Shown: positions 3,041 through 28,958 of the stretch, piece by piece
Layout of the letters: each line of letters begins with the position of its first letter
How positions within the stretch are numbered: position 1 is the stretch's first letter
Assembly: GCA_017499595.2 (NCBI GenBank)
Contig: CM038998.1
Span: forward strand, 1 to 64,000
Source: Psilocybe cubensis
Lineage: Eukaryota
Direction: 5' to 3'
Length of the DNA: 64,000 nt
Program-made: the position numbers and the translations under genes
The notes under the pieces: model-generated
The model's input: the letters and a program-made list of their open reading frames with translations, nothing else
What the model was told of the DNA's origin: nothing
The model's database searches: none

Positions 3041-3772
3041 TCTTTCTATTTCAAACTCACAGTTTAAACTAGTCGCTCGCACCTCGCTTCGCTCGGTGCT
3101 CGCTCCCCCCCTAACCCTAAACCTAAACCTAAACCCTAAACCCTAAACCCTAAGCCCTAACCTAACCCCAACCCTAAGCTAACTAAGTCTAACCTTAGTA
3201 GGAAGTAAGGTAGGCGTGTGAACTTCCGAAAGGCATGTGATTGTGAAGGGCCGGATCTAATTTAGTACATGGGAAAAGTTACTTAGTACCTCGGGAAAAG
3301 TTCCTTAGTACCGTGGAAACATTTTTGATGGACCGGATCATGAACTGTCCAATTAAGATTCACAACAATCAATCAATTGATTGTTAGGTAAGGACCCAGG
3401 TAAGCTATTTATACTCTTGACATGAGAATATTCCCATGTCACGGTTACTCGGAGCCACGTAACCAGAGTATTTTATATCCATGTGATTCACATCACAGTC
3501 AATAACCCACGATGTCAAAGAACAAAAGTGTTGGATCCACTTTTGACAGGTTACCATGTGCCACATCGACCCGTGACACTCTGTTCATCAGAGATCTGTC
3601 TAACTTGACAATAAACATTGACAGATTTGTGATAGTCGGTAAGATACATGACAGCTGCGCAGCATCACTTCACGCGCTGTCATCGGATGTTCCAGAACAT
3701 TCCTTCTAAGAATAGCCACTGAAGAGTCTATAAAGACGAAAGGGCTGGCTGCTGATAACAATCAACAGCCCT

Positions 3773-4701
3773 CAAGTACTCGTCCTCTCCCAAACTCCTG
3801 CCGCTTGTGCCTTCCCAACTCATCCGGGAGCCCTTTCGTCACTGATCTTGCCCTTGACTCGGGGACGTTTCATCGACATGTTGGCTGCCTCACGGCAAGC
3901 GGGGCCCTTTTTCTTTCACTCGCTCACGCCTTCTATGTTGGGTTACGGAGGTCATACAAACTCGTTTTAGTCTAGCTGCGGGGTTATCCAGCTATGATGA
4001 CTTTGTAATTCGAGGGCGCGCAGTTCTTCAATGGGTATGGACATCAGGTGAGAGTACACTGGGGGTTGTCAGGACCAGCTCTGCTGGATACGCTCCTGGC
4101 AAGTCGGTTGCAGCCGGCGACACTACCGAATTGCTGGGACGTCCTAAAGCTTGTGGGTACCGCCGACCGCTGGAAACAGCCTAGGCACCGGTGGCGACCG
4201 GGTATGGTAACAATCCCCAAGATTCAGCGAAAGCTGGAATGGATAATCAGCAGCGAATCCGTAACGGTCACGCCGACGGAAGCGTTCAACGACTAGGTGG
4301 TAGTGGGGTCTTCGGATCTTAAGATATAGTCTTGGGAGTGGGGAAACCCACATCTGGTATCTAAACCGCGCCTCGCTGCTTACGAGGACGGCCCGAAGTC
4401 CAGAACCGCTTAAAACGCGGGTGACCCGGCCTCCCCTTAGTAAAGGGAGTTAACACAAGGATGGACAAATAGTTCGTCGCCGGAAATGAACCTGTGGCTG
4501 TAATGGCTGATGTGGCGCCCCTTGGTAAAGGGCTTAAAGGGTATTAGCCTGCCATGTCCAATGGCATGAGAGTGTCCCTTGGTAAAGGACTTAATAGGCA
4601 ATAGCCTGCTCTTTTGTCATGAGCGGTATGTAGTGATCGTTTGCCTGTACGGTAGCGCCCATTGCTTGCACTGGTCCACGCCCGTAAAAAATCACGAGCC
4701 G
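3773..4701 (+). ncRNA. Group I intron (IC1-like), 929 nt, interrupting the hammerhead
   Basis: P3 CACUACC(4121-27)/GGUAGUG(4299-4305); P AAUUGCUGGG(4129); Q AAUCAGCAG(4245); R GUUCAACGACUA(4284-95); S AAGAUAUAGUC(4321-31); P7 GACUA/UAGUC; P8 UUCG hairpin; P9 GUGGG-GAAA-CCCAC; P5b GCUG-GAAA-CAGC. The 5' exon ends in U3772 and the intron ends in G4701. Precisely absent from other pLTRs. Confidence 0.93.
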
Positions 4702-4813
4702 CTGGCCTTCTTTCCATTTAACTCACAGTTTAAACAAGTCGCTCGCACCTCGCTTCGCTCGGTGCTCGCTCCCCCCCTAAACCCAACGACTTTGCTATTA
4801 CCCAACAGCTACT

Positions 4814-7800
4814 ATGTCTTCCACTTACTCTGCTGCCTTCTCTCGTGCCATGTCCCCCACCCTGGACGCACTCACCCAGGCTGTCGTCAACAACACAGTT
4901 TTTGGCGTCAACGACGAAGCTGGCCGCCACAACGCCCTCATCGACGAGTTGGCCACTGTCGTCATCAAGAAAATAGCTGAGTGCCGCTCCATTGACCAGA
5001 TTGTAGACTGCGTCTTTTTTGACTATCGTGCTGCCCTTAGGGAGTTTCTCCTCAACCTCGCATCGTGGTGCGATAAGAGGGAAACAGTCAAGGCTAGCCT
5101 CGAGCGCCTTGAACTTGCCGTTAGCGCAGGCAACACCCCCAATCGCCTTCGGGTGAAGGCTCCCGAGTTCCAACTTACGAAGGAATTCGCGGATGCCGGG
5201 TCAGCGGAAGCTCTTCGAGTTTCCTCTACGTTCTCCACCGCTCGTGATGTCTTCCAAAAGGCAATCAACGACGGCGCCATTCAGGCGAAAAAGGACGAAC
5301 TGGCCTTTTGGGATGATAAATGCGCACTCAATAACTGTTATGAAGCTGCTGCCCTCATCGTTAAGACAACTTACGATGATCGCAAATCCAGCTATAAGCT
5401 CCCCGTTTTCTCTACAGACAACAAGGGAGTTCGTCGAATAACAGATTGGGTAGTGTCACCGCAGAAGAAGGCTGAATGCAGCGCATTGCAAACCATTTTG
5501 CCAGCCATCTTCTCTCATATCAAACAGATTGTCAACTTGCGCCACCGCGCTTTGGCAATCAAGATTGAGAAAAAGCGGTCGACTGCGGCAACAGCCGATG
5601 TCGAGATGGCCGATGCGACCAAACCAGGTCCATCGATTCAATCCCTTATTGATAAGGGCTTGAATGCACGTCTCAAGAAGCTCAACCTTGGATCTGTGGG
5701 CAAGAAGGCAAGTTCTCGTAACCCTTCACCCATAACTCTGGATACTAATTACTATTCTAATTACCCAGACTTTGTCTGGCCAGAATTCGTCCAAGGCTCC
5801 TCAACCTCAGGCCAAGAAAGCTGGCCCTTCGAAATTCAAACCCTCGTCGACGCCTTCGCAGAAGAAGCCCCAAACCAAGGCTTCCAACAAGGTCGACAAC
5901 AAGAAGAAAGGGAAGGGGAGAGCTCCCGTCAAGAACGATCCAAAGGGAAAGGGAAAGGCAAGAGCCTAGACGCGCGGTCTAATGTAGTACCTTTTACGTC
6001 GGTAAGACCCGCCTTCCCCAACTCTATTCCTGACGATATACTCACCATGACTAAAACAGACGCAGTTTCTTTTGTACACTTACATACGCCGATCTCATTC
6101 TTGTTGGCTGGCCAGTATCGTAGTAGTGTACACTGTAGTCCTGGTGTGGTGGTCCCTGTAGATATAGCAAATGATTTGTCACTCGGACTCAATTATATGT
6201 TTTTTACTCTACCTTCTCAAAGTCTGATCATGCAAACATGGAATGATTTTCAACGAAGAATAAGATGGCGTATCTATTTTTTGTTTAAGGAAGGCATGAA
6301 CAAACCTTTTGATCCAGATTACGGAGTAAGCTCAAAAAAGAAAGAGAAACCTCCAGTATTACCGCAATACATGGAACTTGGCCTTTCGATGGGACGTCGG
6401 TACGTGCAACGCACGATCGCAAGTATCCCGGAAGAAGCCCTTACGGAGATGCGAAAGCACGCGTTCTCTCCTAAAAGGGACAAGATCCGTAAGTTTCTTA
6501 TCGATAACAACTATGTTATTACGATGACAGATAAGAATCTTGGCCTCGCGGTGTCTGAACGCGACTGGATATTAAGGAATGAGCTCAATCTTCTTGAAGA
6601 TGAACGTAACTATGAAGAGTTAGAATTCGAAGTTGCGCAAGAAGTAATGAAGAGCAAAATGATCCAGATGCAAACTCTTGCACGTACCGTCGAAGATGAA
6701 CATCTGTTTCTATTTGAACTTGGGTTGTCTCGATTCTTTCTATCGAATGTACCGGAAGACGGATCATCGTTCAAGTACCCTCAATTTCATGGTATACCTA
6801 AAATCCACAAAAAACCTACTGGACTTAGGCCCATAATTCCGTGTCACTCTGTAGTATTTAATCCTGCAGCCAAGTTTGTATCAAAAGAGCTTAAGCCGAT
6901 TATTAAATCGACTCCTTCAATCATTCACGGAACGAAGGATCTCTTTACGAGATTAAGCCAATTGCGTATAGACCCCAAACGACAATGGTATTTTGTCACC
7001 GGGGATGTAGTTGCTTTCTATCCCAATATTCCGTTGGACTTGTGCATCGAAATCGTTTGTAATATGTACGAGGAATGGTTACTCAACGCTTCGGAAGAAA
7101 ACACTGCATTAGCCCATATTAATCCAAATTCGTTAGAGAATAACTTGGTTAAATTGGGCATCTTTAAACGTGCTATCGAGATTGGCAATACGCAATTGAT
7201 AACACAACATGGGTCTAGATATTTTAGACAAAAAAATGGCCTCGCAATGGGCGTCGCGGATTCTCCGGACCTTGCTAACCTCTTTGGAGCCCATTTTGAA
7301 ATAAAGTCAAAAATCTTAGACCACCCAAACGTGGCCTTCTATGGAAGGTACATCGACGATTGTTTCGCAATTGTTTACGCCGAGTCCGAAGCACTTGCAC
7401 TTAATCTTATTAAAGAAACAATAAAGTTCGATGGTTGTGTTATCGAATGGGCTGTTTCCTCGTCGGGATGTCAATTTCTCGATGCTTTCATATTCAAGGA
7501 GTCTGGAAAACTTCATTGGAAGCCATTTGTCAAGACAGGAAACAACCGAGAACGAGTTCCATGGGTATCACATCATCCTTTGGACGTCAAACGTGGCGTC
7601 TACATTGGAGAGTTATCCAGGTTAGCCGTGCTATGTAGTACCAAGGAAATCTACATCGGAGCAATTAGAGACCTTAACGCTCTCTATTTGATGCGCGGTT
7701 ATCCCGAAAACCTAGTCATGTCTTGGTGTAAGAAGAATATACAAGAACGTTGGGAAAAGCGATTCGCTTTACGAGTCGCAGAGCACGACGAATCCATTCT

Positions 7801-8344
7801 TGTACTTAAAACCAGATTTGATCAGGTATGGAATTGGTTTTCAGCTGCTGAACTTGGAAAAACTGTTACCGAGTACTGGTCGGCATGGTATGAACATGCC
7901 GAGAAAGGTTTGTATAGTGCAGACTCGTCCAGACCCCTTATCAAACCAGATCCAAATTACGTTCACGACCTCGATGATGTTCGCCCGGAGCTGTTCACAC
8001 AGATCCTCGTGGACGGAGAAACTGAGTTCGTACCGGATTTGAGGAAGATAGGACTACTCGGAAGTCGTTGGATAGTATCGCGAAAACGCAATACTAATCT
8101 TTTCGACCTTGCAAATGTGTGGAAGAAAACAGTCTTTCGTAAACTGGATGAAGACATCGCTGAAAAAGGTGGTGTTGTTCCCGAAACTCAAAACGTTAAT
8201 GAAACTTATCATTCTGCTTTAGTTGAAGCTGCTGAACAGATAAGTATCGAAAGTGATAACGAGATAATACTTCATAGACGTTCAATCTCACAAGAGAGGG
8301 AACATCCAGAATTCGGCAGAATATCCAAATCTTACAACCGATAA
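4814..8344 (+). CDS. PLE ORF1-reverse transcriptase polyprotein, 1176 aa, no GIY-YIG endonuclease visible
   Basis: Uninterrupted ORF; PLE-type RT motifs DKNLG, GIPKIHK, RPII, GDVVAFYPNI, QKNGLAMG..SP, YIDD, FLD. Confidence 0.93.
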   Translation: MSSTYSAAFSRAMSPTLDALTQAVVNNTVFGVNDEAGRHNALIDELATVVIKKIAECRSIDQIVDCVFFDYRAALREFLLNLASWCDKRETVKASLERLELAVSAGNTPNRLRVKAPEFQLTKEFADAGSAEALRVSSTFSTARDVFQKAINDGAIQAKKDELAFWDDKCALNNCYEAAALIVKTTYDDRKSSYKLPVFSTDNKGVRRITDWVVSPQKKAECSALQTILPAIFSHIKQIVNLRHRALAIKIEKKRSTAATADVEMADATKPGPSIQSLIDKGLNARLKKLNLGSVGKKASSRNPSPITLDTNYYSNYPDFVWPEFVQGSSTSGQESWPFEIQTLVDAFAEEAPNQGFQQGRQQEEREGESSRQERSKGKGKGKSLDARSNVVPFTSVRPAFPNSIPDDILTMTKTDAVSFVHLHTPISFLLAGQYRSSVHCSPGVVVPVDIANDLSLGLNYMFFTLPSQSLIMQTWNDFQRRIRWRIYFLFKEGMNKPFDPDYGVSSKKKEKPPVLPQYMELGLSMGRRYVQRTIASIPEEALTEMRKHAFSPKRDKIRKFLIDNNYVITMTDKNLGLAVSERDWILRNELNLLEDERNYEELEFEVAQEVMKSKMIQMQTLARTVEDEHLFLFELGLSRFFLSNVPEDGSSFKYPQFHGIPKIHKKPTGLRPIIPCHSVVFNPAAKFVSKELKPIIKSTPSIIHGTKDLFTRLSQLRIDPKRQWYFVTGDVVAFYPNIPLDLCIEIVCNMYEEWLLNASEENTALAHINPNSLENNLVKLGIFKRAIEIGNTQLITQHGSRYFRQKNGLAMGVADSPDLANLFGAHFEIKSKILDHPNVAFYGRYIDDCFAIVYAESEALALNLIKETIKFDGCVIEWAVSSSGCQFLDAFIFKESGKLHWKPFVKTGNNRERVPWVSHHPLDVKRGVYIGELSRLAVLCSTKEIYIGAIRDLNALYLMRGYPENLVMSWCKKNIQERWEKRFALRVAEHDESILVLKTRFDQVWNWFSAAELGKTVTEYWSAWYEHAEKGLYSADSSRPLIKPDPNYVHDLDDVRPELFTQILVDGETEFVPDLRKIGLLGSRWIVSRKRNTNLFDLANVWKKTVFRKLDEDIAEKGGVVPETQNVNETYHSALVEAAEQISIESDNEIILHRRSISQEREHPEFGRISKSYNR
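5708..5768 (+). other. Putative 61-nt GC-AG spliceosomal intron in the PLE ORF (also 11760-11820, 17837-17897, 24689-24749, 29853-29913)
   Basis: AAG|GCAAGT donor, CTAAT branch-like sites, CCCAG acceptor, AT-rich. Removal joins codon 298 to a Lys-rich frame that stops at 5969. Confidence 0.7.
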
Positions 8345-9052
8345 AAAGAATACTAGCGCGTAAGGCGTAAAGCATTAGAAAAAAACCCTAACCGTAAGTA
8401 TTCCTTGCTACAAAGTAACAAACATCTACTTACAAGCAACACATTGGATTAAATAGCTAAACCTAAACCTAAACCCTAAACCCTAAACCCTAAGCCCTAA
8501 CCTAACCCCAACCCTAAGCTAACTAAGTCTAACCTTAGTAGGAAGTAAGGTAGGCGTGTGAACTTCCGAAAGGCATGTGATTGTGAAGGGCCGGATCTAA
8601 TTTAGTACATGGGAAAAGTTACTTAGTACCTCGGGAAAAGTTCCTTAGTACCGTGGAAACATTTTTGATGGACCGGATCATGAACTGTCCAATTAAGATT
8701 CACAACAATCAATCAATTGATTGTTAGGTAAGGACCCAGGTAAGCTATTTATACTCTTGACATGAGAATATTCCCATGTCACGGTTACTCGGAGCCACGT
8801 AACCAGAGTATTTTATATCCATGTGATTCACATCACAGTCAATAACCCACGATGTCAAAGAACAAAAGTGTTGGATCCACTTTTGACAGGTTACCATGTG
8901 CCACATCGACCCGTGACACTCTGTTCATCAGAGATCTGTCTAACTTGACAATAAACATTGACAGATTTGTGATAGTCGGTAAGATACATGACAGCTGCGC
9001 AGCATCACTTCACGCGCTGTCATCGGATGTTCCAGAACATTCCTTCTAAGAA

Positions 9053-9119
9053 TAGCCACTGAAGAGTCTATAAAGACGAAAGGGCTGGCTGCTGATAACA
9101 ATCAACAGCCCTCTGGCCT
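9053..9119 (+). ncRNA. Hammerhead ribozyme, intact
   Basis: Same core as 2974-3040 with an alternative stem III extension (UGAU-AACA-AUCA). Confidence 0.88.
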
Positions 9120-9824
9120 TCTTTCCATTTAACTCACAGTTTAAACAAGTCGCTCGCACCTCGCTTCGCTCGGTGCTCGCTCCCCCCCTAAACCCTAAAC
9201 CCTAAGCCCTAACCTAACCCCAACCCTAAGCTAACTAAGTCTAACCTTAGTAGGAAGTAAGGTAGGCGTGTGAACTTCCGAAAGGCATGTGATTGTGAAG
9301 GGCCGGATCTAATTTAGTACATGGGAAAAGTTACTTAGTACCTCGGGAAAAGTTCCTTAGTACCGTGGAAACATTTTTGATGGACCGGATCATGAACTGT
9401 CCAATTAAGATTCACAACAATCAATCAATTGATTGTTAGGTAAGGACCCAGGTAAGCTATTTATACTCTTGACATGAGAATATTCCCATGTCACGGTTAC
9501 TCGGAGCCACGTAACCAGAGTATTTTATATCCATGTGATTCACATCACAGTCAATAACCCACGATGTCAAAGAACAAAAGTGTTGGATCCACTTTTGACA
9601 GGTTACCATGTGCCACATCGACCCGTGACACTCTGTTCATCAGAGATCTGTCTAACTTGACAATAAACATTGACAGATTTGTGATAGTCGGTAAGATACA
9701 TGACAGCTGCGCAGCATCACTTCACGCGCTGTCATCGGATGTTCCAGAACATTCCTTCTAAGAATAGCCACTGAAGAGTCTATAAAGACGAAAGGGCTGG
9801 CTGCTGATAACAATCAACAGCCCT

Positions 9825-10753
9825 CAAGTACTCGTCCTCTCCCAAACTCCTGCCGCTTGTGCCTTCCCAACTCATCCGGGAGCCCTTTCGTCACTGATCT
9901 TGCCCTTGACTCGGGGACGTTTCATCGACATGTTGGCTGCCTCACGGCAAGCGGGGCCCTTTTTCTTTCACTCGCTCACGCCTTCTATGTTGGGTTACGG
10001 AGGTCATACAAACTCGTTTTAGTCTAGCTGCGGGGATATCCAGCTATGATGACTTTGTAATTCGAGGGCGCGCAGTTCTTCAATGGGTATGGACATCAGG
10101 TGAGAGTACACTGGGGGTTGTCAGGACCAGCTCTGCTGGATACGCTCCTGGCAAGTCGGTTGCAGCCGGCGACACTACCGAATTGCTGGGACGTCCTAAA
10201 GCTTGTGGGTACCGCCGACCGCTGGAAACAGCCTAGGCACCGGTGGCGACCGGGTATGGTAACAATCCCCAAGATTCAGCGAACGCTGGAATGGATAATC
10301 AGCAGCGAATCCGTAACGGTCACGCCGACGGAAGCGTTCAACGACTAGGTGGTAGTGGGGTCTTCGGATCTTAAGATATAGTCTTGGGAGTGGGGAAACC
10401 CACATCTGGTATCTAAACCGCGCCTCGCTGCTTACGAGGACGGCCCGAAGTCCAGAACCGCTTAAAACGCGGGTGACCCGGCCTCCCCTTAGTAAAGGGA
10501 GTTAACACAAGGATGGACAAATAGTTCGTCGCCGGAAATGAACCTGTGGCTGTAATGGCTGATGTGGCGCCCCTTGGTAAAGGGCTTAAAGGGTATTAGC
10601 CTGCCATGTCCAATGGCATGAGAGTGTCCCTTGGTAAAGGACTTAATAGGCAATAGCCTGCTCTTTTGTCATGAGCGGTATGTAGTGATCGTTTGCCTGT
10701 ACGGTAGCGCCCATTGCTTGCACTGGTCCACGCCCGTAAAAAATCACGAGCCG
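9825..10753 (+). ncRNA. Group I intron copy 2
   Basis: Near-identical to 3773-4701 with the same U|...G boundaries. Confidence 0.93.
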
Positions 10754-10865: not shown

Positions 10866-13800
10866 ATGTCTTCCACTTACTCTGCTGCCTTCTCTCGTGC
10901 CATGTCCCCCACCCTGGACGCACTCACCCAGGCTGTCGTCAACAACACAGTTTTTGGCGTCAACGACGAAGCTGGCCGCCACAACGCCCTCATCGACGAG
11001 TTGGCCACTGTCGTCATCAAGAAAATAGCTGAGTGCCGCTCCATTGACCAGATTGTAGACTGCGTCTTTTTTGACTATCGTGCTGCCCTTAGGGAGTTTC
11101 TCCTCAACCTCGCATCGTGGTGCGATAAGAGGGAAACAGTCAAGGCTAGCCTCGAGCGCCTTGAACTTGCCGTTAGCGCAGGCAACACCCCCAATCGCCT
11201 TCGGGTGAAGGCTCCCGAGTTCCAACTTACGAAGGAATTCGCGGATGCCGGGTCAGCGGAAGCTCTTCGAGTTTCCTCTACGTTCTCCACCGCTCGTGAT
11301 GTCTTCCAAAAGGCAATCAACGACGGCGCCATTCAGGCGAAAAAGGACGAACTGGCCTTTTGGGATGATAAATGCGCACTCAATAACTGTTATGAAGCTG
11401 CTGCCCTCATCGTTAAGACAACTTACGATGATCGCAAATCCAGCTATAAGCTCCCCGTTTTCTCTACAGACAACAAGGGAGTTCGTCGAATAACAGATTG
11501 GGTAGTGTCACCGCAGAAGAAGGCTGAATGCAGCGCATTGCAAACCATTTTGCCAGCCATCTTCTCTCATATCAAACAGATTGTCAACTTGCGCCACCGC
11601 GCTTTGGCAATCAAGATTGAGAAAAAGCGGTCGACTGCGGCAACAGCCGATGTCGAGATGGCCGATGCGACCAAACCAGGTCCATCGATTCAATCCCTTA
11701 TTGATAAGGGCTTGAATGCACGTCTCAAGAAGCTCAACCTTGGATCTGTGGGCAAGAAGGCAAGTTCTCGTAACCCTTCACCCATAATTCTGGATACTAA
11801 TTACTATTCTAATTACCCAGACTTTGTCTGGCCAGAATTCGTCCAAGGCTCCTCAACCTCAGGCCAAGAAAGCTGGCCCTTCGAAATTCAAACCCTCGTC
11901 GACGCCTTCGCAGAAGAAGCCCCAAACCAAGGCTTCCAACAAGGTCGACAACAAGAAGAAAGGGAAGGGGAGAGCTCCCGTCAAGAACGATCCAAAGGGA
12001 AAGGGAAAGGCAAGAGCCTAGACGCGCGGTCTAATGTAGTACCTTTTACGTCGGTAAGACCCGCCTTCCCCAACTCTATTCCTGACGATATACTCACCAT
12101 GACTAAAACAGACGCAGTTTCTTTTGTACACTTACATACGCCGATCTCATTCTTGTTGGCTGGCCAGTATCGTAGTAGTGTACACTGTAGTCCTGGTGTG
12201 GTGGTCCCTGTAGATATAGCAAATGATTTGTCACTCGGACTCAATTATATGTTTTTTACTCTACCTTCTCAAAGTCTGATCATGCAAGCATGGAATGATT
12301 TTCAACGAAGAATAAGATGGCGTATCTATTTTTTGTTTAAGGAAGGCATGAACAAACCTTTTGATCCAGATTACGGAGTAAGCTCAAAAAAGAAAGAGAA
12401 ACCTCCAGTATTACCGCAATACATGGAACTTGGCCTTTCGATGGGACGTCGGTACGTGCAACGCACGATCGCAAGTATCCCGGAAGAAGCCCTTACGGAG
12501 ATGCGAAAGCACGCGTTCTCTCCTAAAAGGGACAAGATCCGTAAGTTTCTTATCGATAACAACTATGTTATTACGATGACAGATAAGAATCTTGGCCTCG
12601 CGGTGTCTGAACGCGACTGGATATTAAGGAATGAGCTCAATCTTCTTGAAGATGAACGTAACTATGAAGAGTTAGAATTCGAAGTTGCGCAAGAAGTAAT
12701 GAAGAGCAAAATGATCCAGATGCAAACTCTTGCACGTACCGTCGAAGATGAACATCTGTTTCTATTTGAACTTGGGTTGTCTCGATTCTTTCTATCGAAT
12801 GTACCGGAAGACGGATCATCGTTCAAGTATCCTCAATTTCATGGTATACCTAAAATCCACAAAAAACCTACTGGATTTAGGCCCATAATTCCGTGTCACT
12901 CTGTAGTATTTAATCCTGCAGCCAAGTTTGTATCAAAAGAGCTTAAGCCGATTATTAAATCGACTCCTTCAATCATTCACGGAACGAAGGATCTCTTTAC
13001 GAGATTAAGCCAATTGCGTATAGACCCCAAACGACAATGGTATTTTGTCACCGGGGATGTAGTTGCTTTCTATCCCAATATTCCGTTGGACTTGTGCATC
13101 GAAATCGTTTGTAATATGTACGAGGAATGGTTACTCAACGCTTCGGAAGAAAACACTGCATTAGCCCATATTAATCCAAATTCGTTAGAGAATAACTTGG
13201 TTAAATTGGGCATCTTTAAACGTGCTATCGAGATTGGCAATACGCAATTGATAACACAACATGGGTCTAGATATTTTAGACAAAAAAATGGCCTCGCAAT
13301 GGGCGTCGCGGATTCTCCGGACCTTGCTAACCTCTTTGGAGCCCATTTTGAAATAAAGTCAAAAATCTTAGACCACCCAAACGTGGCCTTCTATGGAAGG
13401 TACATCGACGATTGTTTCGCAATTGTTTACGCCGAGTCCGAAGCACTTGCACTTAATCTTATTAAAGAAACAATAAAGTTCGATGGTTGTGTTATCGAAT
13501 GGGCTGTTTCCTCGTCGGGATGTCAATTTCTCGATGCTTTCATATTCAAGGAGTCTGGAAAACTTCATTGGAAGCCATTTGTCAAGACAGGAAACAACCG
13601 AGAACGAGTTCCATGGGTATCACATCATCCTTTGGACGTCAAACGTGGCGTCTACATTGGAGAGTTATCCAGGTTAGCCGTGCTATGTAGTACCAAGGAA
13701 ATCTACATCGGAGCAATTAGAGACCTTAACGCTCTCTATTTGATGCGCGGTTATCCCGAAAACCTAGTCATGTCTTGGTGTAAGAAGAATATACAAGAAC

Positions 13801-14396
13801 GTTGGGAAAAGCGATTCGCTTTACGAGTCGCAGAGCACGACGAATCCATTCTTGTACTTAAAACCAGATTTGATCAGGTATGGAATTGGTTTTCAGCTGC
13901 TGAACTTGGAAAAACTGTTACCGAGTACTGGTCGGCATGGTATGAACATGCCGAGAAAGGTTTGTATAGTGCAGACTCGTCCAGACCCCTTATCAAACCA
14001 GATCCAAATTACGTTCACGACCTCGATGATGTTCGCCCGGAGCTGTTCACACAGATCCTCGTGGACGGAGAAACTGAGTTCGTACCGGATTTGAGGAAGA
14101 TAGGACTACTCGGAAGTCGTTGGATAGTATCGCGAAAACGCAATACTAATCTTTTCGACCTTGCAAATGTGTGGAAGAAAACAGTCTTTCGTAAACTGGA
14201 TGAAGACATCGCTGAAAAAGGTGGTGTTGTTCCCGAAACTCAAAACGTTAATGAAACTTATCATTCTGCTTTAGTTGAAGCTGCTGAACAGATAAGTATC
14301 GAAAGTGATAACGAGATAATACTTCATAGACGTTCAATCTCACAAGAGAGGGAACATCCAGAATTCGGCAGAATATCCAAATCTTACAACCGATGA
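10866..14396 (+). CDS. PLE ORF1-RT polyprotein, 1176 aa
   Basis: Intact ORF with the YIDD RT core. Confidence 0.93.
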   Translation: MSSTYSAAFSRAMSPTLDALTQAVVNNTVFGVNDEAGRHNALIDELATVVIKKIAECRSIDQIVDCVFFDYRAALREFLLNLASWCDKRETVKASLERLELAVSAGNTPNRLRVKAPEFQLTKEFADAGSAEALRVSSTFSTARDVFQKAINDGAIQAKKDELAFWDDKCALNNCYEAAALIVKTTYDDRKSSYKLPVFSTDNKGVRRITDWVVSPQKKAECSALQTILPAIFSHIKQIVNLRHRALAIKIEKKRSTAATADVEMADATKPGPSIQSLIDKGLNARLKKLNLGSVGKKASSRNPSPIILDTNYYSNYPDFVWPEFVQGSSTSGQESWPFEIQTLVDAFAEEAPNQGFQQGRQQEEREGESSRQERSKGKGKGKSLDARSNVVPFTSVRPAFPNSIPDDILTMTKTDAVSFVHLHTPISFLLAGQYRSSVHCSPGVVVPVDIANDLSLGLNYMFFTLPSQSLIMQAWNDFQRRIRWRIYFLFKEGMNKPFDPDYGVSSKKKEKPPVLPQYMELGLSMGRRYVQRTIASIPEEALTEMRKHAFSPKRDKIRKFLIDNNYVITMTDKNLGLAVSERDWILRNELNLLEDERNYEELEFEVAQEVMKSKMIQMQTLARTVEDEHLFLFELGLSRFFLSNVPEDGSSFKYPQFHGIPKIHKKPTGFRPIIPCHSVVFNPAAKFVSKELKPIIKSTPSIIHGTKDLFTRLSQLRIDPKRQWYFVTGDVVAFYPNIPLDLCIEIVCNMYEEWLLNASEENTALAHINPNSLENNLVKLGIFKRAIEIGNTQLITQHGSRYFRQKNGLAMGVADSPDLANLFGAHFEIKSKILDHPNVAFYGRYIDDCFAIVYAESEALALNLIKETIKFDGCVIEWAVSSSGCQFLDAFIFKESGKLHWKPFVKTGNNRERVPWVSHHPLDVKRGVYIGELSRLAVLCSTKEIYIGAIRDLNALYLMRGYPENLVMSWCKKNIQERWEKRFALRVAEHDESILVLKTRFDQVWNWFSAAELGKTVTEYWSAWYEHAEKGLYSADSSRPLIKPDPNYVHDLDDVRPELFTQILVDGETEFVPDLRKIGLLGSRWIVSRKRNTNLFDLANVWKKTVFRKLDEDIAEKGGVVPETQNVNETYHSALVEAAEQISIESDNEIILHRRSISQEREHPEFGRISKSYNR

Positions 14397-15901: not shown

Positions 15902-16830
15902 CAAGTACTCGTCCTCTCCCAAACTCCTGCCGCTTGTGCCTTCCCAACTCATCCGGGAGCCCTTTCGTCACTGATCTTGCCCTTGACTCGGGGACGTTTC
16001 ATCGACATGTTGGCTGCCTCACGGCAAGCGGGGCCCTTTTTCTTTCACTCGCTCACGCCTTCTATGTTGGGTTACGGAGGTCATACAAACTCGTTTTAGT
16101 CTAGCTGCGGGGTTATCCAGCTATGATGACTTTGTAATTCGAGGGCGCGCAGTTCTTCAATGGGTATGGACATCAGGTGAGAGTACACTGGGGGTTGTCA
16201 GGACCAGCTCTGCTGGATACGCTCCTGGCAAGTCGGTTGCAGCCGGCGACACTACCGAATTGCTGGGACGTCCTAAAGCTTGTGGGTACCGCCGACCGCT
16301 GGAAACAGCCTAGGCACCGGTGGCGACCGGGTATGGTAACAATCCCCAAGATTCAGCGAAAGCTGGAATGGATAATCAGCAGCGAATCCGTAACGGTCAC
16401 GCCGACGGAAGCGTTCAACGACTAGGTGGTAGTGGGGTCTTCGGATCTTAAGATATAGTCTTGGGAGTGGGGAAACCCACATCTGGTATCTAAACCGCGC
16501 CTCGCTGCTTACGAGGACGGCCCGAAGTCCAGAACCGCTTAAAACGCGGGTGACCCGGCCTCCCCTTAGTAAAGGGAGTTAACACAAGGATGGACAAATA
16601 GTTCGTCGCCGGAAATGAACCTGTGGCTGTAATGGCTGATGTGGCGCCCCTTGGTAAAGGGCTTAAAGGGTATTAGCCTGCCATGTCCAATGGCATGAGA
16701 GTGTCCCTTGGTAAAGGACTTAATAGGCAATAGCCTGCTCTTTTGTCATGAGCGGTATGTAGTGATCGTTTGCCTGTACGGTAGCGCCCATTGCTTGCAC
16801 TGGTCCACGCCCGTAAAAAATCACGAGCCG
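15902..16830 (+). ncRNA. Group I intron copy 3
   Basis: Near-identical to 3773-4701. Confidence 0.93.
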
Positions 16831-16942: not shown

Positions 16943-19900
16943 ATGTCTTCCACTTACTCTGCTGCCTTCTCTCGTGCCATGTCCCCCACCCTGGACGCAC
17001 TCACCCAGGCTGTCGTCAACAACACAGTTTTTGGCGTCAACGACGAAGCTGGCCGCCACAACGCCCTCATCGACGAGTTGGCCACTGTCGTCATCAAGAA
17101 AATAGCTGAGTGCCGCTCCATTGACCAGATTGTAGACTGCGTCTTTTTTGACTATCGTGCTACCCTTAGGGAGTTTCTCCTCAACCTCGCATCGTGGTGC
17201 GATAAGAGGGAAACAGTCAAGGCTAGCCTCGAGCGCCTTGAACTTGCCGTTAGCGCAGGCAACACCCCCAATCGCCTTCGGGTAAAGGCTCCCGAGTTCC
17301 AACTTACGAAGGAATTCGCGGATGCCGGGTCAGCGGAAGCTCTTCGAGTTTCCTCTACGTTCTCCACCGCTCGTGATGTCTTCCAAAAGGCAATCAACGA
17401 CGGCGCCATTCAGGCGAAAAAGGACGAACTGGCCTTTTGGGATGATAAATGCGCACTCAATAACTGTTATGAAGCTGCTGCCCTCATCGTTAAGACAACT
17501 TACGATGATCGCAAATCCAGCTATAAGCTCCCCGTTTTCTCTACAGACAACAAGGGAGTTCGTCGAATAACAGATTGGGTAGTGTCACCGCAGAAGAAGG
17601 CTGAATGCAGCGCATTGCAAACCATTTTGCCAGCCATCTTCTCTCATATCAAACAGATTGTCAACTTGCGCCACCGCGCTTTGGCAATCAAGATTGAGAA
17701 AAAGCGGTCGACTGCGGCAACAGCCGATGTCGAGATGGCCGATGCGACCAAACCAGGTCCATCGATTCAATCCCTTATTGATAAGGGCTTGAATGCACGT
17801 CTCAAGAAGCTCAACCTTGGATCTGTGGGCAAGAAGGCAAGTTCTCGTAACCCTTCACCCATAATTCTGGATACTAATTACTATTCTAATTACCCAGACT
17901 TTGTCTGGCCAGAATTCGTCCAAGGCTCCTCAACCTCAGGCCAAGAAAGCTGGCCCTTCGAAATTCAAACCCTCGTCGACGCCTTCGCAGAAGAAGCCCC
18001 AAACCAAGGCTTCCAACAAGGTCGACAACAAGAAGAAAGGGAAGGGGAGAGCTCCCGTCAAGAACGATCCAAAGGGAAAGGGAAAGGCAAGAGCCTAGAC
18101 GCGCGGTCTAATGTAGTACCTTTTACGTCGGTAAGACCCGCCTTCCCCAACTCTATTCCTGACGATATACTCACCATGACTAAAACAGACGCAGTTTCTT
18201 TTGTACACTTACATACGCCGATCTCATTCTTGTTGGCTGGCCAGTATCGTAGTAGTGTACACTGTAGTCCTGGTGTGGTGGTCCCTGTAGATATAGCAAA
18301 TGATTTGTCACTCGGACTCAATTATATGTTTTTTACTCTGCCTTCTCAAAGTCTGATCATGCAAGCATGGAATGATTTTCAACGAAGAATAAGATGGCGT
18401 ATCTATTTTTTGTTTAAGGAAGGCATGAACAAACCTTTTGATCCAGATTACGGAGTAAGCTCAAAAAAGAAAGAGAAACCTCCAGTATTACCGCAATACA
18501 TGGAACTTGGCCTTTCGATGGGACGTCGGTACGTGCAACGCACGATCGCAAGTATCCCGGAAGAAGCCCTTACGGAGATGCGAAAGCACGCGTTCTCTCC
18601 TAAAAGGGACAAGATCCGTAAGTTTCTTATCGATAACAACTATGTTATTACGATGACAGATAAGAATCTTGGCCTCGCGGTGTCTGAACGCGACTGGATA
18701 TTAAGGAATGAGCTCAATCTTCTTGAAGATGAACGTAACTATGAAGAGTTAGAATTCGAAGTTGCGCAAGAAGTAATGAAGAGCAAAATGATCCAGATGC
18801 AAACTCTTGCACGTACCGTCGAAGATGAACATCTGTTTCTATTTGAACTTGGGTTGTCTCGATTCTTTCTATCGAATGTACCGGAAGACGGATCATCGTT
18901 CAAGTATCCTCAATTTCATGGTATACCTAAAATCCACAAAAAACCTACTGGATTTAGGCCCATAATTCCGTGTCACTCTGTAGTATTTAATCCTGCAGCC
19001 AAGTTTGTATCAAAAGAGCTTAAGCCGATTATTAAATCGACTCCTTCAATCATTCACGGAACGAAGGATCTCTTTACGAGATTAAGCCAATTGCGTATAG
19101 ACCCCAAACGACAATGGTATTTTGTCACCGGGGATGTAGTTGCTTTCTATCCCAATATTCCGTTGGACTTGTGCATCGAAATCGTTTGTAATATGTACGA
19201 GGAATGGTTACTCAACGCTTCGGAAGAAAACACTGCATTAGCCCATATTAATCCAAATTCGTTAGAGAATAACTTGGTTAAATTGGGCATCTTTAAACGT
19301 GCTATCGAGATTGGCAATACGCAATTGATAACACAACATGGGTCTAGATATTTTAGACAAAAAAATGGCCTCGCAATGGGCGTCGCGGATTCTCCGGACC
19401 TTGCTAACCTCTTTGGAGCCCATTTTGAAATAAAGTCAAAAATCTTAGACCACCCAAACGTGGCCTTCTATGGAAGGTACATCGACGATTGTTTCGCAAT
19501 TGTTTACGCCGAGTCCGAAGCACTTGCACTTAATCTTATTAAAGAAACAATAAAGTTCGATGGTTGTGTTATCGAATGGGCTGTTTCCTCGTCGGGATGT
19601 CAATTTCTCGATGCTTTCATATTCAAGGAGTCTGGAAAACTTCATTGGAAGCCATTTGTCAAGACAGGAAACAACCGAGAACGAGTTCCATGGGTATCAC
19701 ATCATCCTTTGGACGTCAAACGTGGCGTCTACATTGGAGAGTTATCCAGGTTAGCCGTGCTATGTAGTACCAAGGAAATCTACATCGGAGCAATTAGAGA
19801 CCTTAACGCTCTCTATTTGATGCGCGGTTATCCCGAAAACCTAGTCATGTCTTGGTGTAAGAAGAATATACAAGAACGTTGGGAAAAGCGATTCGCTTTA

Positions 19901-20473
19901 CGAGTCGCAGAGCACGACGAATCCATTCTTGTACTTAAAACCAGATTTGATCAGGTATGGAATTGGTTTTCAGCTGCTGAACTTGGAAAAACTGTTACCG
20001 AGTACTGGTCGGCATGGTATGAACATGCCGAGAAAGGTTTGTATAGTGCAGACTCGTCCAGACCCCTTATCAAACCAGATCCAAATTACGTTCACGACCT
20101 CGATGATGTTCGCCCGGAGCTGTTCACACAGATCCTCGTGGACGGAGAAACTGAGTTCGTACCGGATTTGAGGAAGATAGGACTACTCGGAAGTCGTTGG
20201 ATAGTATCGCGAAAACGCAATACTAATCTTTTCGACCTTGCAAATGTGTGGAAGAAAACAGTCTTTCGTAAACTGGATGAAGACATCGCTGAAAAAGGTG
20301 GTGTTGTTCCCGAAACTCAAAACGTTAATGAAACTTATCATTCTGCTTTAGTTGAAGCTGCTGAACAGATAAGTATCGAAAGTGATAACGAGATAATACT
20401 TCATAGACGTTCAATCTCACAAGAGAGGGAACATCCAGAATTCGGCAGAATATCCAAATCTTACAACCGATGA
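16943..20473 (+). CDS. PLE ORF1-RT polyprotein, 1176 aa
   Basis: Intact ORF with the YIDD RT core. Confidence 0.93.
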   Translation: MSSTYSAAFSRAMSPTLDALTQAVVNNTVFGVNDEAGRHNALIDELATVVIKKIAECRSIDQIVDCVFFDYRATLREFLLNLASWCDKRETVKASLERLELAVSAGNTPNRLRVKAPEFQLTKEFADAGSAEALRVSSTFSTARDVFQKAINDGAIQAKKDELAFWDDKCALNNCYEAAALIVKTTYDDRKSSYKLPVFSTDNKGVRRITDWVVSPQKKAECSALQTILPAIFSHIKQIVNLRHRALAIKIEKKRSTAATADVEMADATKPGPSIQSLIDKGLNARLKKLNLGSVGKKASSRNPSPIILDTNYYSNYPDFVWPEFVQGSSTSGQESWPFEIQTLVDAFAEEAPNQGFQQGRQQEEREGESSRQERSKGKGKGKSLDARSNVVPFTSVRPAFPNSIPDDILTMTKTDAVSFVHLHTPISFLLAGQYRSSVHCSPGVVVPVDIANDLSLGLNYMFFTLPSQSLIMQAWNDFQRRIRWRIYFLFKEGMNKPFDPDYGVSSKKKEKPPVLPQYMELGLSMGRRYVQRTIASIPEEALTEMRKHAFSPKRDKIRKFLIDNNYVITMTDKNLGLAVSERDWILRNELNLLEDERNYEELEFEVAQEVMKSKMIQMQTLARTVEDEHLFLFELGLSRFFLSNVPEDGSSFKYPQFHGIPKIHKKPTGFRPIIPCHSVVFNPAAKFVSKELKPIIKSTPSIIHGTKDLFTRLSQLRIDPKRQWYFVTGDVVAFYPNIPLDLCIEIVCNMYEEWLLNASEENTALAHINPNSLENNLVKLGIFKRAIEIGNTQLITQHGSRYFRQKNGLAMGVADSPDLANLFGAHFEIKSKILDHPNVAFYGRYIDDCFAIVYAESEALALNLIKETIKFDGCVIEWAVSSSGCQFLDAFIFKESGKLHWKPFVKTGNNRERVPWVSHHPLDVKRGVYIGELSRLAVLCSTKEIYIGAIRDLNALYLMRGYPENLVMSWCKKNIQERWEKRFALRVAEHDESILVLKTRFDQVWNWFSAAELGKTVTEYWSAWYEHAEKGLYSADSSRPLIKPDPNYVHDLDDVRPELFTQILVDGETEFVPDLRKIGLLGSRWIVSRKRNTNLFDLANVWKKTVFRKLDEDIAEKGGVVPETQNVNETYHSALVEAAEQISIESDNEIILHRRSISQEREHPEFGRISKSYNR

Positions 20474-22754: not shown

Positions 22755-23683
22755 CAAGTACTCGTCCTCTCCCAAACTCCTGCCGCTTGTGCCTTCCCAA
22801 CTCATCCGGGAGCCCTTTCGTCACTGATCTTGCCCTTGACTCGGGGACGTTTCATCGACATGTTGGCTGCCTCACGGCAAGCGGGGCCCTTTTTCTTTCA
22901 CTCGCTCACGCCTTCTATGTTGGGTTACGGAGGTCATACAAACTCGTTTTAGTCTAGCTGCGGGGATATCCAGCTATGATGACTTTGTAATTCGAGGGCG
23001 CGCAGTTCTTCAATGGGTATGGACATCAGGTGAGAGTACACTGGGGGTTGTCAGGACCAGCTCTGCTGGATACGCTCCTGGCAAGTCGGTTGCAGCCGGC
23101 GACACTACCGAATTGCTGGGACGTCCTAAAGCTTGTGGGTACCGCCGACCGCTGGAAACAGCCTAGGCACCGGTGGCGACCGGGTATGGTAACAATCCCC
23201 AAGATTCAGCGAAAGCTGGAATGGATAATCAGCAGCGAATCCGTAACGGTCACGCCGACGGAAGCGTTCAACGACTAGGTGGTAGTGGGGTCTTCGGATC
23301 TTAAGATATAGTCTTGGGAGTGGGGAAACCCACATCTGGTATCTAAACCGCGCCTCGCTGCTTACGAGGACGGCCCGAAGTCCAGAACCGCTTAAAACGC
23401 GGGTGACCCGGCCTCCCCTTAGTAAAGGGAGTTAACACAAGGATGGACAAATAGTTCGTCGCCGGAAATGAACCTGTGGCTGTAATGGCTGATGTGGCGC
23501 CCCTTGGTAAAGGGCTTAAAGGGTATTAGCCTGCCATGTCCAATGGCATGAGAGTGTCCCTTGGTAAAGGACTTAATAGGCAATAGCCTGCTCTTTTGTC
23601 ATGAGCGGTATGTAGTGATCGTTTGCCTGTACGGTAGCGCCCATTGCTTGCACTGGTCCACGCCCGTAAAAAATCACGAGCCG
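22755..23683 (+). ncRNA. Group I intron copy 4
   Basis: Near-identical to 3773-4701 although the flanking pLTR and ORF1 are more diverged. Confidence 0.93.
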
Positions 23684-23794: not shown

Positions 23795-26700
23795 ATGTCA
23801 TCTCAATACTCTGCTGCTTTCTCTCGTGCCATGTCCCCCACCCTGGACGCACTCACCCAGGCCGTCGTCAACAACACCGTTTTCGGCGTCAACGATGAAG
23901 CAGGCCGCCATAACGCTCTGATCGACGAGCTGGCCACTGTGGTCATCAAAAAAATAGCTGAGTGCCGCTCCGTTGACCAAGTCATAGACTGCGTCTTTTT
24001 TGACTATCGTGCTGCCCTTAGGGAGTTTCTCCTCAACCTCGCATCGTGGTGCGATAAGAGGGAAACAGTCAAGGCTAGCCTCGAGCGCCTTGAATCTGCC
24101 GTTAGCGCAGGCAACACGCCCAATCGCCTTAAGGTGAAGGCACCCGAGTTCCAACTTACGAAGGAATTCGCGGATGCCGGGTCAGCGGAGGCTCTTCGAG
24201 TCTCCACTACGTTCTCTACCGCTCGTGACGCCTTCCAAAAGGCAATTAACGACGGCGCCATTCAGGCGAAAAAGGACGAGCTGACTTTTTGGGATGATAA
24301 ATGCGCACTCAACTCTTGCTACGAAGCTGCTGCCCTCATCGTTAAGGCAACTTACGATGATCGCAAATCCAGCTACAAGCTCCCTGTTTTCTCTACAGAT
24401 AACAAGGGAGTTCGACGTATAGCAGAGTGGGTAGTGTCTCCGCAAAAGAAAGCCGAATGCAGTGCGCTGCAAACCATACTGCCGGCGATCTTTTCTCACA
24501 TCAAACAAATTGTCAACATGCGCCACCGCGCTTTGGCAATTAAGATTGAGAAAAAGCGGACGACTGCGGCAACAGCCGATGTCGAGATGGCCGACGCGAC
24601 CAAACCAGGTCCGTCGATTCAATCCCTTATTGATAAGGGCTTGAATGCACGTCTCAAGAAGCTCAACCTTGGATCTGTGGGCAAGAAGGCAAGTTTTCGT
24701 AACCCTTCACCCATAATTCTGGATACTAATTACTACTCTAATTACCCAGACTTTGTCTGGCCAGAATTCGTCCAAGGCTCCTCAACCTCAGGCCAAGAAA
24801 GCTGGCCCTTCGAAACCCAAGTCGTCGTCGACGCCTTCGCAACGCAAGCCTCAAACCAAGGCTTCCAACAAGGTCGACAACAAGAAGAAAGGGAAGGGGA
24901 GAGCTCCCGTCAAGAACGATCCAAAGGGAAAGGGAAAGGCAAGAGCCTAGATGCGCGGTCTAATGTAGTACCTTTTACGTCGGTGAGACCCGCCTTCCCC
25001 AACTCTATTCCTGACGATATACTCACCATGACTAAAACAGACGCAGTTTCTTTCGTACACTTACATACTCCAATATCATTCTTGTTGGCTGGCCAGTATC
25101 GTAGTAGTGTACATTGTAGTCCTGGTGTTTCTGTCCCTGTTGATGTAGCAAACGATCTCTCTCTCGGACTTAATTATATGTTTTTCACTCTGCCTTCTAA
25201 AAGTCTGATCATGCAAGCATGGAATGATTTCCAACGAAGAATAAGATGGCGTATCTATTTTTTGTTTAAGGAAGGCATGAATAAACCTTTTGATCCAGAT
25301 TATGGAGTAAGCTCAAAAAAGAAAGAGAAACCTCCTGTATTACCGCAATATATGGAACTTGGCCTTTCGATGGGACGTCGGTACGTGCAACGCACGATCG
25401 CAAGTATCCCGGAAGAAGCCCTTACGGAGATGCGAAAGCACGCGTTCTCTCCTAAAAGGGACAAGATCCGTAAGTTTCTTATCGATAACAACTATGTTAT
25501 TACGATGACAGATAAGAATCTTGGCCTCGCGGTGTCTGAACGCGACTGGATATTAAGGAATGAGCTCAATCTTCTTGAAGATGAACGTAATTACGAAGAG
25601 TTAGAATTCGAAGTTGCGCAAGAAGTTATGAAGAGCAAAATGATTCAGATGCAAACGCTCGCACGTACTGTCGAAGATGAACATCTGTTTCTATTTGAAC
25701 TTGGGTTGTCTCGATTCTTTCTATCGAATGTACCGGAAGACGGATCATCGTTCAAGTATCCTCAATTTCATGGTATACCTAAAATCCACAAGAAACCTAC
25801 TGGATTTAGGCCCATAATTCCGTGTCACTCTGTAGTATTTAATCCTGCAGCCAAGTTTGTATCAAAAGAGCTTAAGCCGATTATTAAATCGACTCCTTCA
25901 ATCATACACGGAACGAAGGATCTCTTTACGAGATTAAGCCAATTGCGTATAGACTCCAAAAGACAATGGTATTTTGTCACTGGAGATGTAGTTGCTTTCT
26001 ATCCCAATATTCCGTTGGACTTGTGCATCGAAATCGTTTGTAGTATGTACGAGGAATGGTTACTCAACGCTTCGGAAGAAAACACTGCATTAGCCCATAT
26101 TAATCCAAATTCGTTAGAGAATAACTTGGTTAAATTGGGCATCTTTAAACGTGCTATCGAGATTGGCAATACGCAATTGATAACACAACATGGGTCTAGA
26201 TATTTTAGACAAAAAAATGGCCTCGCAATGGGCGTCGCGGATTCTCCGGACCTTGCTAACCTCTTTGGAGCCCATTTTGAAATAAAGTCAAAAATCTTAG
26301 ACCACCCAAACGTGGCCTTCTATGGAAGGTACATCGACGATTGTTTCGCAATTGTTTACGCCGAGTCCGAAGCACTTGCACTTAATCTTATTAAAGAAAC
26401 AATAAAGTTCGATGGTTGTGTTATCGAATGGGCTGTTTCCTCGTCGGGATGTCAATTTCTCGATGCTTTCATATTCAAGGAGTCTGGAAAACTTCATTGG
26501 AAGCCTTTTGTCAAGACAGGAAACAACCGAGAACGAGTTCCATGGGTATCACATCATCCTTTGGACGTCAAACGTGGCGTCTACATTGGAGAGTTATCCA
26601 GGTTAGCCGTGCTATGTAGTACCAAGGAAATCTACATCGGAGCAATTAGAGACCTTAACGCTCTCTATTTGATGCGCGGTTATCCCGAAAACCTAGTCAT

Positions 26701-28107: not shown

Positions 28108-28786
28108 CTTTCCATTTAACTCCCAGTTTAAACTAGTCGCTCGCACCTCGCTTCGCTCGGTGCTCGCTCCCACCCTAAACCCTAAACCCTAAACCCTAAC
28201 CCTAAACCCTAAACCCTAAGCCCTAACCTAACCCCAACCCTAAGCTAACTAAGTCTAACCTTAGTAGGAAGTAAGGTAGGCGTGTGAACTTCCGAACGGC
28301 ATGTGATTGTGAAGGGCCGGATCTAATTTAGTACATGGGAAAAGTTACTTAGTACTTCGGGAAAAGTTCCTTAGTACCGTGGAAACATTTTTGATGGACC
28401 AGATCATGAACTGTCCAATTAAGATTCACAACAATCAATCAGTCTATTGTTTGATTGTTAGGTAAGGACCCAGGTAAGCTATTTATACTCTAGACATGTG
28501 AATATTCCCATGTCGCGGTTACTCGGAGCCACGTAACCAGAGTTTTCTATATCCATGTGATTCACATCACAGTCAATAACCCACGATGTCAAAGAACAAA
28601 AGTGTTGGATCCACTTTTGACAGGTTACCATATGCCACATTGACCCGTGACACTCTGTTCATCAGAGATCTGTCTAACTTGACAATAAACATTGACAGAT
28701 TTGTGATAGTCGGTAAGATACATGACAGCTGCGCAGCATCACTTCACGCGCTGTCATCGGATGTTCCAGAACATTCCTTCTAAGAA

Positions 28787-28853
28787 TAGCCACTGAAGAG
28801 TCTATAAAGACGAAAGGGCTGGCTGCTGATAACAATCAACAGCCCTCTGGCTT
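28787..28853 (+). ncRNA. Hammerhead ribozyme, intact, upstream of the ORF
   Basis: Same core and stems. Confidence 0.88.
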
Positions 28854-28958
28854 CTTTCCATTTTAACTCCCAGTTTAAACTAGTCGCTCGCACCTCGCTT
28901 CGCTCGGTGCTCGCTCCCCCCCTAAACCCAACGACTTTGCTATCACCCATCAGCCACT

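Follow-up and report, generated by a model that had tools for sequence, protein, structure and literature searches.

A predicted self-splicing group I intron in the leader of a telomeric Penelope-like retroelement of Psilocybe cubensis

Here we report a computational analysis of the first 64,000 nucleotides (nt) of Psilocybe cubensis contig CM038998.1 (GenBank assembly GCA_017499595.2, forward strand; referred to below as the window), where an array of retroelements contains four copies of a 929-nt insert. On the evidence of its sequence, the insert of the element on which we focus (3773-4701) is a genuine group I intron that has no open reading frame (ORF), lies in the 5′ leader of the retroelement and is predicted to splice. 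Along the + strand, the focal element consists of telomere-like repeats at its 5′ edge (3109-3177), a leader that forms the 5′ exon (3178-3772) and ends in ACAGCCCU, the intron, a 3′ exon that forms the 5′ untranslated region (UTR; 4702-4813) and includes the telomere-like CCCTAAACCC at 4775-4784, a reverse transcriptase (RT) ORF of 1176 amino acids (aa; 4814-8344), a 3′ UTR (8345-8456), and a downstream flanking repeat (3′ pLTR; 8457-9185) whose last 73 nt finish with the C-run.

An earlier note on this DNA had claimed a complete group I core in a retrotransposon, outside ribosomal DNA (rDNA), and had proposed a covariance-model search as a check. That search gave a significant match to the Rfam model RF00028 at 3976-4353, covering all 253 model positions with a score of 73 bits (E 1.3e-16) against a gathering score of 50, and further matches of equal or near-equal score (73 or 70.9 bits) were found at 16105-16482, 10109-10405 and 23039-23335. 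All of the helices named in the earlier note are present. The ribozyme core (4070-4353) comprises P2 (4070-4098), P2.1 (4103-4118), a P3 of 7 bp (4121-4127/4299-4305), P4 (UUGCUG 4131-4136/CAGCAG 4248-4253), P5, P6, P7 (GACUA 4291-4295/UAGUC 4327-4331), a UUCG-capped P8 (4306-4319) and a GAAA-capped P9 (4338-4351), and its pairs are standard in the Rfam alignment with the exception of P2. A P5abc-like arm at 4145-4236 includes a GAAA loop (4170-4179) and AUGGUAACAA (4204-4213). With P2, P2.1 and a long P5 arm all present, the architecture is IC1-like, a label taken from the helix layout rather than from a subgroup model. RNAalifold, applied to six cores from the window and related loci, recovered 34 pairs (P4-P9), 15 of which show changes on both sides; it missed P3 because the trimmed segments cut the 5′ strand of this helix in some rows.

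The 5′ splice site lies after U3772, within a predicted P1 helix of 10 bp, directly upstream of P2, in which a substrate strand of eight exon nucleotides (ACAGCCCU) and two intron nucleotides (CA), together 3765-3774, pairs with the internal guide sequence UGGGGGUUGU (4060-4069), with G4062 opposite U3772 and a duplex energy of -16.3 kcal/mol. The P1 loop holds a 285-nt insertion (3775-4059) that is partly conserved in an intron of a related element, L070, and the core is followed by a 348-nt 3′ peripheral domain (4354-4701) with three similar hairpins of the CCCUU-GGUAAA-GG type (4431-4449, 4517-4533 and 4574-4590), a motif that recurs in the introns of the related loci L070, L071 and L079. 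The claim that no homing endonuclease ORF is present held up: the + strand of the insert lacks any ORF of 40 aa or longer, Pfam matched neither of the two - strand ORFs (69 and 57 aa) at an E value below 0.18, and no endonuclease ORF lies inside the intron. The Rfam GIR1 model found no match, and a scan of the window with Rfam found no ribosomal RNA (rRNA) gene at gathering score.

The ends given for the insert in the earlier note proved exact. Among 13 copies of the junction ending CAGCCCT, nine are intron-less (CAGCCCT|CTGGC) and four have 929 extra bases, at 3773-4701, 9825-10753, 15902-16830 and, in a diverged element with a type B leader, 22755-23683, all on the + strand. Placed against the nine intron-less junctions, the last base of the 5′ exon is U, and the insert runs from C3773 to G4701, the terminal (omega) G. 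An assembly chimera had been named as a possible refutation. An artefact in which reads of an rDNA intron were joined to a telomeric repeat has nothing in its favour and is scarcely credible given that the four copies share identical junctions, that independent metagenome contigs have related introns in the same location, and that, among the 4 of 24 listed sequencing runs examined for coverage of the insert, three DNA runs cover it. These provide one contig over 3768-4683, a second over 4184-4742 that crosses the 3′ junction by 41 nt, and raw reads at a depth of ∼80-120 over the whole insert; joints without the intron (3772->4702) are likewise found among raw reads from another run.

The window represents a chromosome end, since its first 185 nt, at the left, are 26 CCCTAAA telomere repeats (Tandem Repeats Finder). 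From 186 to 35541 on the + strand it holds a head-to-tail array with five full-length ORFs of 1176-1177 aa each (4814-8344, 10866-14396, 16943-20473, 23795-27325 and 28959-32492), two 5′-truncated ORF remnants, each directly capped by telomere repeats (189-2264 and 33367-34648), and eight ORF-less leader repeats, the units being separated by short telomere-like repeats. All seven ORF-bearing copies are followed on the centromere side by an ORF-less repeat, and there is one extra solo repeat. In the ORF-less repeats, telomere-like repeats precede a leader of ∼600 nt and a further 73 nt terminating in CCCCCCCTAAACCC, a motif that recurs in the element 5′ UTR; the leader at 33253 is the downstream repeat of element 5 and adjoins a 5′-truncated copy. 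In the focal element, the downstream repeat carries a leader identical to 3117-3772, an intron-less junction at 9112|9113 and a complete hammerhead ribozyme at 9051-9122.

The terminal position, the orientation with the 5′ end toward the chromosome end, the reverse-complement telomere repeats at the 3′ end and the flanking direct repeats carrying hammerheads all identify the host, as far as sequence can, as a telomere-specific, endonuclease-less Penelope-like element (PLE) of Coprina type, the Coprina label being derived from motifs and architecture rather than from an RT tree. The location that the earlier note had assigned to the intron is thus specified as the 5′ leader of a telomere-attached, endonuclease-less retroelement. 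Both a PLE motif, MTDKNLG, and an RT motif, YIDD, are encoded in the ORF, T572-D573-K574-N575 is invariant among 23 relatives, and the protein is 99% identical to Psilocybe cubensis hypothetical proteins in the NCBI listing. A direct Pfam search of the 1176-aa ORF returned no family at E values up to 10, RVT_1 was matched weakly by two of three homologues tried, no endonuclease domain was found by Pfam in the ORF or in these homologues, and Pfam and PDB searches with the RT yielded nothing specific. Unlike the direct search, the precomputed Pfam list for the 99% identical proteins names PF00078, PF28514 and PF26215. The terminal repeat unit is the 7-mer CCCTAAA (TTTAGGG type) rather than the 6-mer CCCTAA; the related locus L053 shares the 7-mer (6341-6475), and L070 has CCCTAA. 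Each leader contains, always in the same place (3262-3319 in the focal element), 2.3-2.7 copies of a 22-nt unit, TTAGTACCTGGGAAAAGTTAC, that could be a promoter or protein-binding element. Beyond the array, the subtelomere (42524-43138, 50892-50970 and 55412-55569) contains a 309-bp tandem repeat and repeats of 32-40 nt around the palindrome GGCCGGCC.

Two features of the locus go beyond what the earlier note described: the intron splits the hammerhead of the element, and only the upstream flanking repeat carries the intron. The last 58 nt of the 5′ exon (3715-3772, + strand) form the 5′ part of a type-I hammerhead, with the helix I strand GCCA (3715-3718), the core CUGAAGA (3719-3725), helix II (3726-3737), GAA (3738-3740) and helix III (3741-3747/3766-3772), in which A15.1 is 3741 and U16.1 is 3772. 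The start of the 3′ exon supplies C17 (C4702) and the 3′ strand of helix I (UGGC, 4703-4706), with the predicted cut at 4702|4703. The intron is therefore inserted between U16.1 and C17 of a conserved ribozyme, so that helix I, and with it a complete hammerhead, would exist only after exon ligation. A structural parse (CUGANGA and GAAA core, helices I-III, U16.1 and a non-G at position 17) found complete type-I hammerheads at all nine intron-less junctions, including that of the sole full-length intron-less element (28785-28855, + strand; junction 28846|28847), and at none of the four intron-bearing ones.

The same parse identified complete hammerheads at 50 sites in 44 of 80 related loci, having reduced 49 loci with the core motif to 44 by dropping sites that lacked a helix I of at least 4 bp, U16.1 or a non-G at position 17. 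Among the 47 unique hammerheads, helices II and III show covariation far exceeding that of a slid-register control: helix II pairs 2 and 3 are canonical in 47 and 45, and helix III pairs 2 to 5 in 47, 45, 38 and 39, as opposed to only 18-24 of 47 for helix II and III pairs in a control with the register slid by one; helix I pairs 1-4 served as a selection criterion and are therefore not counted as evidence. Pairs were counted from the anchored parse, MAFFT alignments of 41 and then 15 hammerheads having placed the 3′ strands out of register. A covariance model (R1), built from just the 7 of 41 unique sequences from relatives that aligned in register, scored the nine intron-less junctions at 61.5-72.7 bits and the four intron-bearing ones at 44.2-46.7 bits. 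The Rfam hammerhead models gave no match at threshold, the best being RAGATH-1 (25.3 bits, E 0.7). According to one study, fungal PLEs carry type-I hammerheads with a large helix III, and one from Serpula is active in vitro (PMC4209133). One related locus, L019, has two different hammerheads (1193-1248 and 1739-1794) upstream of a single RT ORF.

This arrangement raises the possibility that the intron has been domesticated as a switch deciding the fate of the element RNA, with unspliced RNA, in which the hammerhead is disabled and the 5′ UTR blocked, serving as template, and spliced RNA, with a hammerhead and an open 5′ UTR, serving as processed messenger RNA (mRNA). Hammerhead helix III and P1 would compete for the same CAGCCCU, which can pair at -11.2 kcal/mol in the former and, as given above, at -16.3 kcal/mol in the latter; the splice site falls exactly within the hammerhead core; and the intron is kept in 4 of 5 upstream flanking repeats, those of the full-length copies, compared with 0 of 8 downstream or solo ORF-less repeats (Fisher p 0.007). 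The spliceosomal intron of Drosophila virilis Penelope, which abuts hammerhead helix I, is a further point in its favour (PMC4209133). Set against this are 22 of the 24 relatives whose contigs include both a hammerhead and the ORF start, which do without an intron, the intact helix I in the precursors of L064 and L070, and the one full-length intron-less copy in the window, which has an intact ORF. We regard such a switch, which is compatible with the explanation that we prefer below, as rather unlikely.

The leaders fall into types A, A′ and B, which differ among themselves at 1 and 35 of 600 sites, and each type exists in an intron-bearing and an intron-less form that show 0 differences over 600 nt and agree in their exon-2 variants. 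Precise excision would account for the DNA copies in which a leader haplotype is missing 3773-4701 and nothing else. Among the four copies of the intron, 2 of 929 sites vary. These observations make it very improbable that the insert is a dead relic with a recognisable core, its splicing lost, and that the intron-less copies are simply older and were never invaded. The sole full-length intron-less element is indeed older and nearer the centromere, but a relic is difficult to reconcile with three leader haplotypes in both forms without a single difference, with so few differences between intron copies, with standard core pairs (P2 apart) and compensatory changes across relatives, or with a second intron in L070 that lies between the start codon and the ORF body and would cost the protein its N-terminus if left unspliced.

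The intron also forms a block of near identity in otherwise diverged elements. Between element 1, the focal copy, and element 4, the intron has one difference in 929 nt, whereas the leader has 28/603, the 5′ UTR 7/112 and the ORF 132/3531 (Fisher p 6e-11 and 1e-12), and the differences nearest the intron lie at 3762, 10 nt upstream of one splice site, and at 4706, 5 nt downstream of the other. A block that is bounded by the splice sites, without co-conversion of its flanks, is what reverse splicing would predict, and what neither endonuclease-driven homing nor ordinary recombination would be expected to produce. If instead the intron were a passive passenger that entered once in an ancestor and was inherited vertically, both the near identity and the pairs with and without it would have to come from gene conversion at the DNA level or from RT template switching. 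A passenger is favoured by the tandem arrangement of the elements at a single chromosome end, a place of frequent recombination, by the near identity of elements 1-3, and by the fact that reverse splicing is not directly observable in these data. However, both breakpoints of the conversion or template switch would then have to fall no more than 10 nt and 5 nt away from the splice sites, and the exact U|C junction would have to arise in nine of nine intron-less copies.

Related elements bear further on the passenger, and the earlier note had suggested a screen of other Coprina-like PLEs. A profile of 23 RTs retrieved 80 loci in metagenome contigs, and group I cores were found in 4 of them. At the RF00028 gathering score only L070 was detected, with two introns (76.5 and 72.8 bits). 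When 12 of the 80 loci were scanned at a more permissive threshold, L071, L053 and L064 (39.6, 34.2 and 31.6 bits; E 1e-6 to 3e-4) were added, and an nhmmer core profile run over all 80 found the same four loci and no others. A scan of viral contigs yielded one irrelevant locus only. The RTs of the intron-bearing hosts are only 30-46% identical, which speaks against a one-off capture from host rDNA. The core of the window intron is nearest to the two L070 cores (66-69% identical) even though the respective RTs are 31% identical, and transfer between element lineages is therefore favoured; for a passenger, intron similarity should instead have tracked RT similarity.

The positions of these introns, counted from the hammerhead cut, are equally informative. 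They are -1 in the window, +4 in L053 (intron 444-1514), +13 in L070 (5905-6750, confirmed against its own intron-less downstream repeat) and +48 in L064 (749-1821). The second L070 core (7018-7331, 76.5 bits) is the one situated behind the start codon and ahead of the main part of the RT ORF (6843-7900), and two alternative excisions that are preceded by U and end in G would keep the frame. Wherever the ends can be placed, the intron follows a U and terminates in G, and all five sites, from four lineages, lie within ∼115 nt after the hammerhead cut, a clustering that also counts in favour of the switch considered above. In the 24 loci that have both hammerhead and ORF start, the distance from hammerhead to ATG is 78-144 nt in 22 and 1172 nt in L053 and L064. 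The RTs of these two loci are 89% identical, yet their introns lie 4 and 48 nt past the cut, and the homologous guide position pairs in each with its own exon. Different sites with retargeted guides in such close relatives, together with the observations above, render the passenger improbable. Separately, L079, whose RT is 90% identical to that of L071, retains an intron 3′ domain at 1052-1563 that is 86% identical to L071 352-900; it has no recognisable core and looks like a decaying intron.

The restriction of the intron to upstream repeats bears on how these elements are copied. The two flanking repeats of an element, upstream and downstream, are identical apart from the intron in each of the four elements that bear it; in the full-length intron-less element (28172-33366) they differ at 34 of 600 sites. 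The complementary DNA grows outward from the old chromosome end, and the intron-less downstream repeat is made before the intron-bearing upstream one. Since the two repeats share a haplotype, the downstream one comes first and only the upstream one has the intron, spliced and unspliced leaders must both have been reverse-transcribed, and two RNA forms of one source seem to have been used in one insertion. Origins of the asymmetry in a single RNA molecule, in rolling-circle copying of a hammerhead-ligated RNA, in a retrovirus-like jump or in faithful copying of the whole unit were considered and rejected, each being at odds either with the order of synthesis or with the fact that both exons are identical.

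Taken as a whole, the data are best explained by a group I intron that resides in the leader of a telomeric PLE, is copied by the element RT and spreads again by reverse splicing, an explanation to which we assign a probability of roughly three in four. The element RNA would be made with the intron inside. In an unspliced fraction, leader and body would stay joined because the hammerhead is incomplete, and copying of this RNA by the element RT at a chromosome end would carry the intron into new copies; a spliced fraction would give rise to precisely intron-less copies and, with its 5′ UTR freed of a 929-nt structured insert, may serve as mRNA. Excised intron RNA would reverse-splice into element RNAs that lack the intron, mostly reusing the original site but occasionally entering a new one, a step that we infer because the identity block ends at the splice sites and the sites in relatives differ. 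The element RT and telomere-primed integration would then fix the reverse-spliced intron. Spread by reverse splicing is a long-standing proposal for group I introns, and the retroelement would supply the reverse-transcription and integration steps that these introns are without; with the genome of a retroelement as the target RNA, both missing steps are built in. The version of this idea put forward in the earlier note, spread by reverse splicing and the RT of the element, gains indirect support from the contrast between 1/929 in the intron and 4-6% in its flanks, from the different sites in relatives and from the two guides that match them. We further suggest, more tentatively and with somewhat less than even confidence, that intron and telomerase-like retroelement make up a composite mobile unit in which the intron acts as a ribozyme-within-ribozyme switch, keeping genomic RNA uncut and sorting template from messenger.

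Several observations weigh against this explanation. The evidence for mobility is all comparative, from one chromosome end and short metagenome contigs; the copies in the window are partly non-independent because elements 1-3 are nearly identical; and gene conversion at the DNA level could in principle account for both the identity block and the pairs with and without the intron. Within the intron, the 285-nt P1-loop insertion is unusual and a P10 pairing, sought by eye, is not evident. In the spliced type-A hammerhead, helix I is just 4 bp long. Among the relatives, the L053, L064 and L071 matches fall below the Rfam gathering score, P1 of the L070 leader intron is weak (5-6 bp), and in L064 and L070 the intron lies downstream of an intact helix I, where the idea of the intron as a hammerhead guard fails. 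A presumed RNA run contributed one contig on 4702-4781 that continues into unlike sequence and is uninformative on splicing.

Nuclear group I introns are confined to rDNA according to three reviews (PMC3679873, PMC8395846, PMC9223047), and all-ribozyme rDNA introns without an endonuclease gene are common (PMC3679873). Judged by the predicted introns described here, this rule is broken in at least five retroelement lineages. Like nuclear rDNA introns of class IC1, such as Tetrahymena Tth.L1925, the present intron has a P1-P9 core, a G.U pair at the 5′ splice site, a terminal G and an extended P5 arm, with no protein needed in principle. It differs from them in its host, a telomeric retroelement with a protein-coding ORF instead of an rRNA gene, and in its 285-nt P1-loop insertion and 348-nt 3′ domain. 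A full-text literature search found no paper in which a nuclear retroelement, Penelope-like or other, is associated with a group I intron, with supplements and the 2007 Coprina paper lying outside that search.

Among retroelements, the closest parallel is Drosophila virilis Penelope, in which an intron in the leader or flanking repeat abuts hammerhead helix I, the spliced and unspliced hammerheads differ, and the intron is retained in genomic copies (PMC4209133). That intron is short and spliceosomal, whereas here a 929-nt group I ribozyme, predicted to be self-splicing, cuts the hammerhead core between U16.1 and C17; the present case is thus, by analogy, the predicted self-splicing counterpart of the D. 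virilis Penelope intron. The Athena and Coprina PLEs share with our element an ORF limited to RT, a position at chromosome ends with the 3′ end centromere-ward, reverse-complement telomere repeats, and hammerheads in the flanking repeats (pLTR), but a group I intron goes unmentioned in the accessible parts of their descriptions (PMC8557442, PMC13159263, PMC4209133). Two ribozymes nested in one transcript are also a feature of the twin-ribozyme introns (GIR1/GIR2) of Didymium and Naegleria (PMC4167309). There a small ribozyme lies inside an rDNA intron and serves an endonuclease mRNA, whereas here the intron lies inside the small ribozyme.

Mobile group II introns combine a self-splicing ribozyme with an RT that moves along with it, and they spread by reverse splicing and subsequent reverse transcription. 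The composite unit tentatively suggested above would, if true, be the first natural system in which a group I intron is seen to run the whole course from reverse splicing through reverse transcription to integration into the genome, a pathway that becomes testable in a culturable fungus or in yeast. The asymmetry between upstream and downstream repeats also constrains how PLEs build their flanking repeats, and a group I ribozyme that is nested in a hammerhead, on a presumably non-nucleolar transcript, may interest RNA engineers. As in group II introns, a ribozyme and an RT would work as a unit; unlike in group II introns, the ribozyme fold is unrelated, the RT belongs to the host retroelement rather than being encoded by the intron, the target would be RNA, and integration would take place at telomeres. 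The system, if real, would thus stand as a convergent counterpart of mobile group II introns at chromosome ends.

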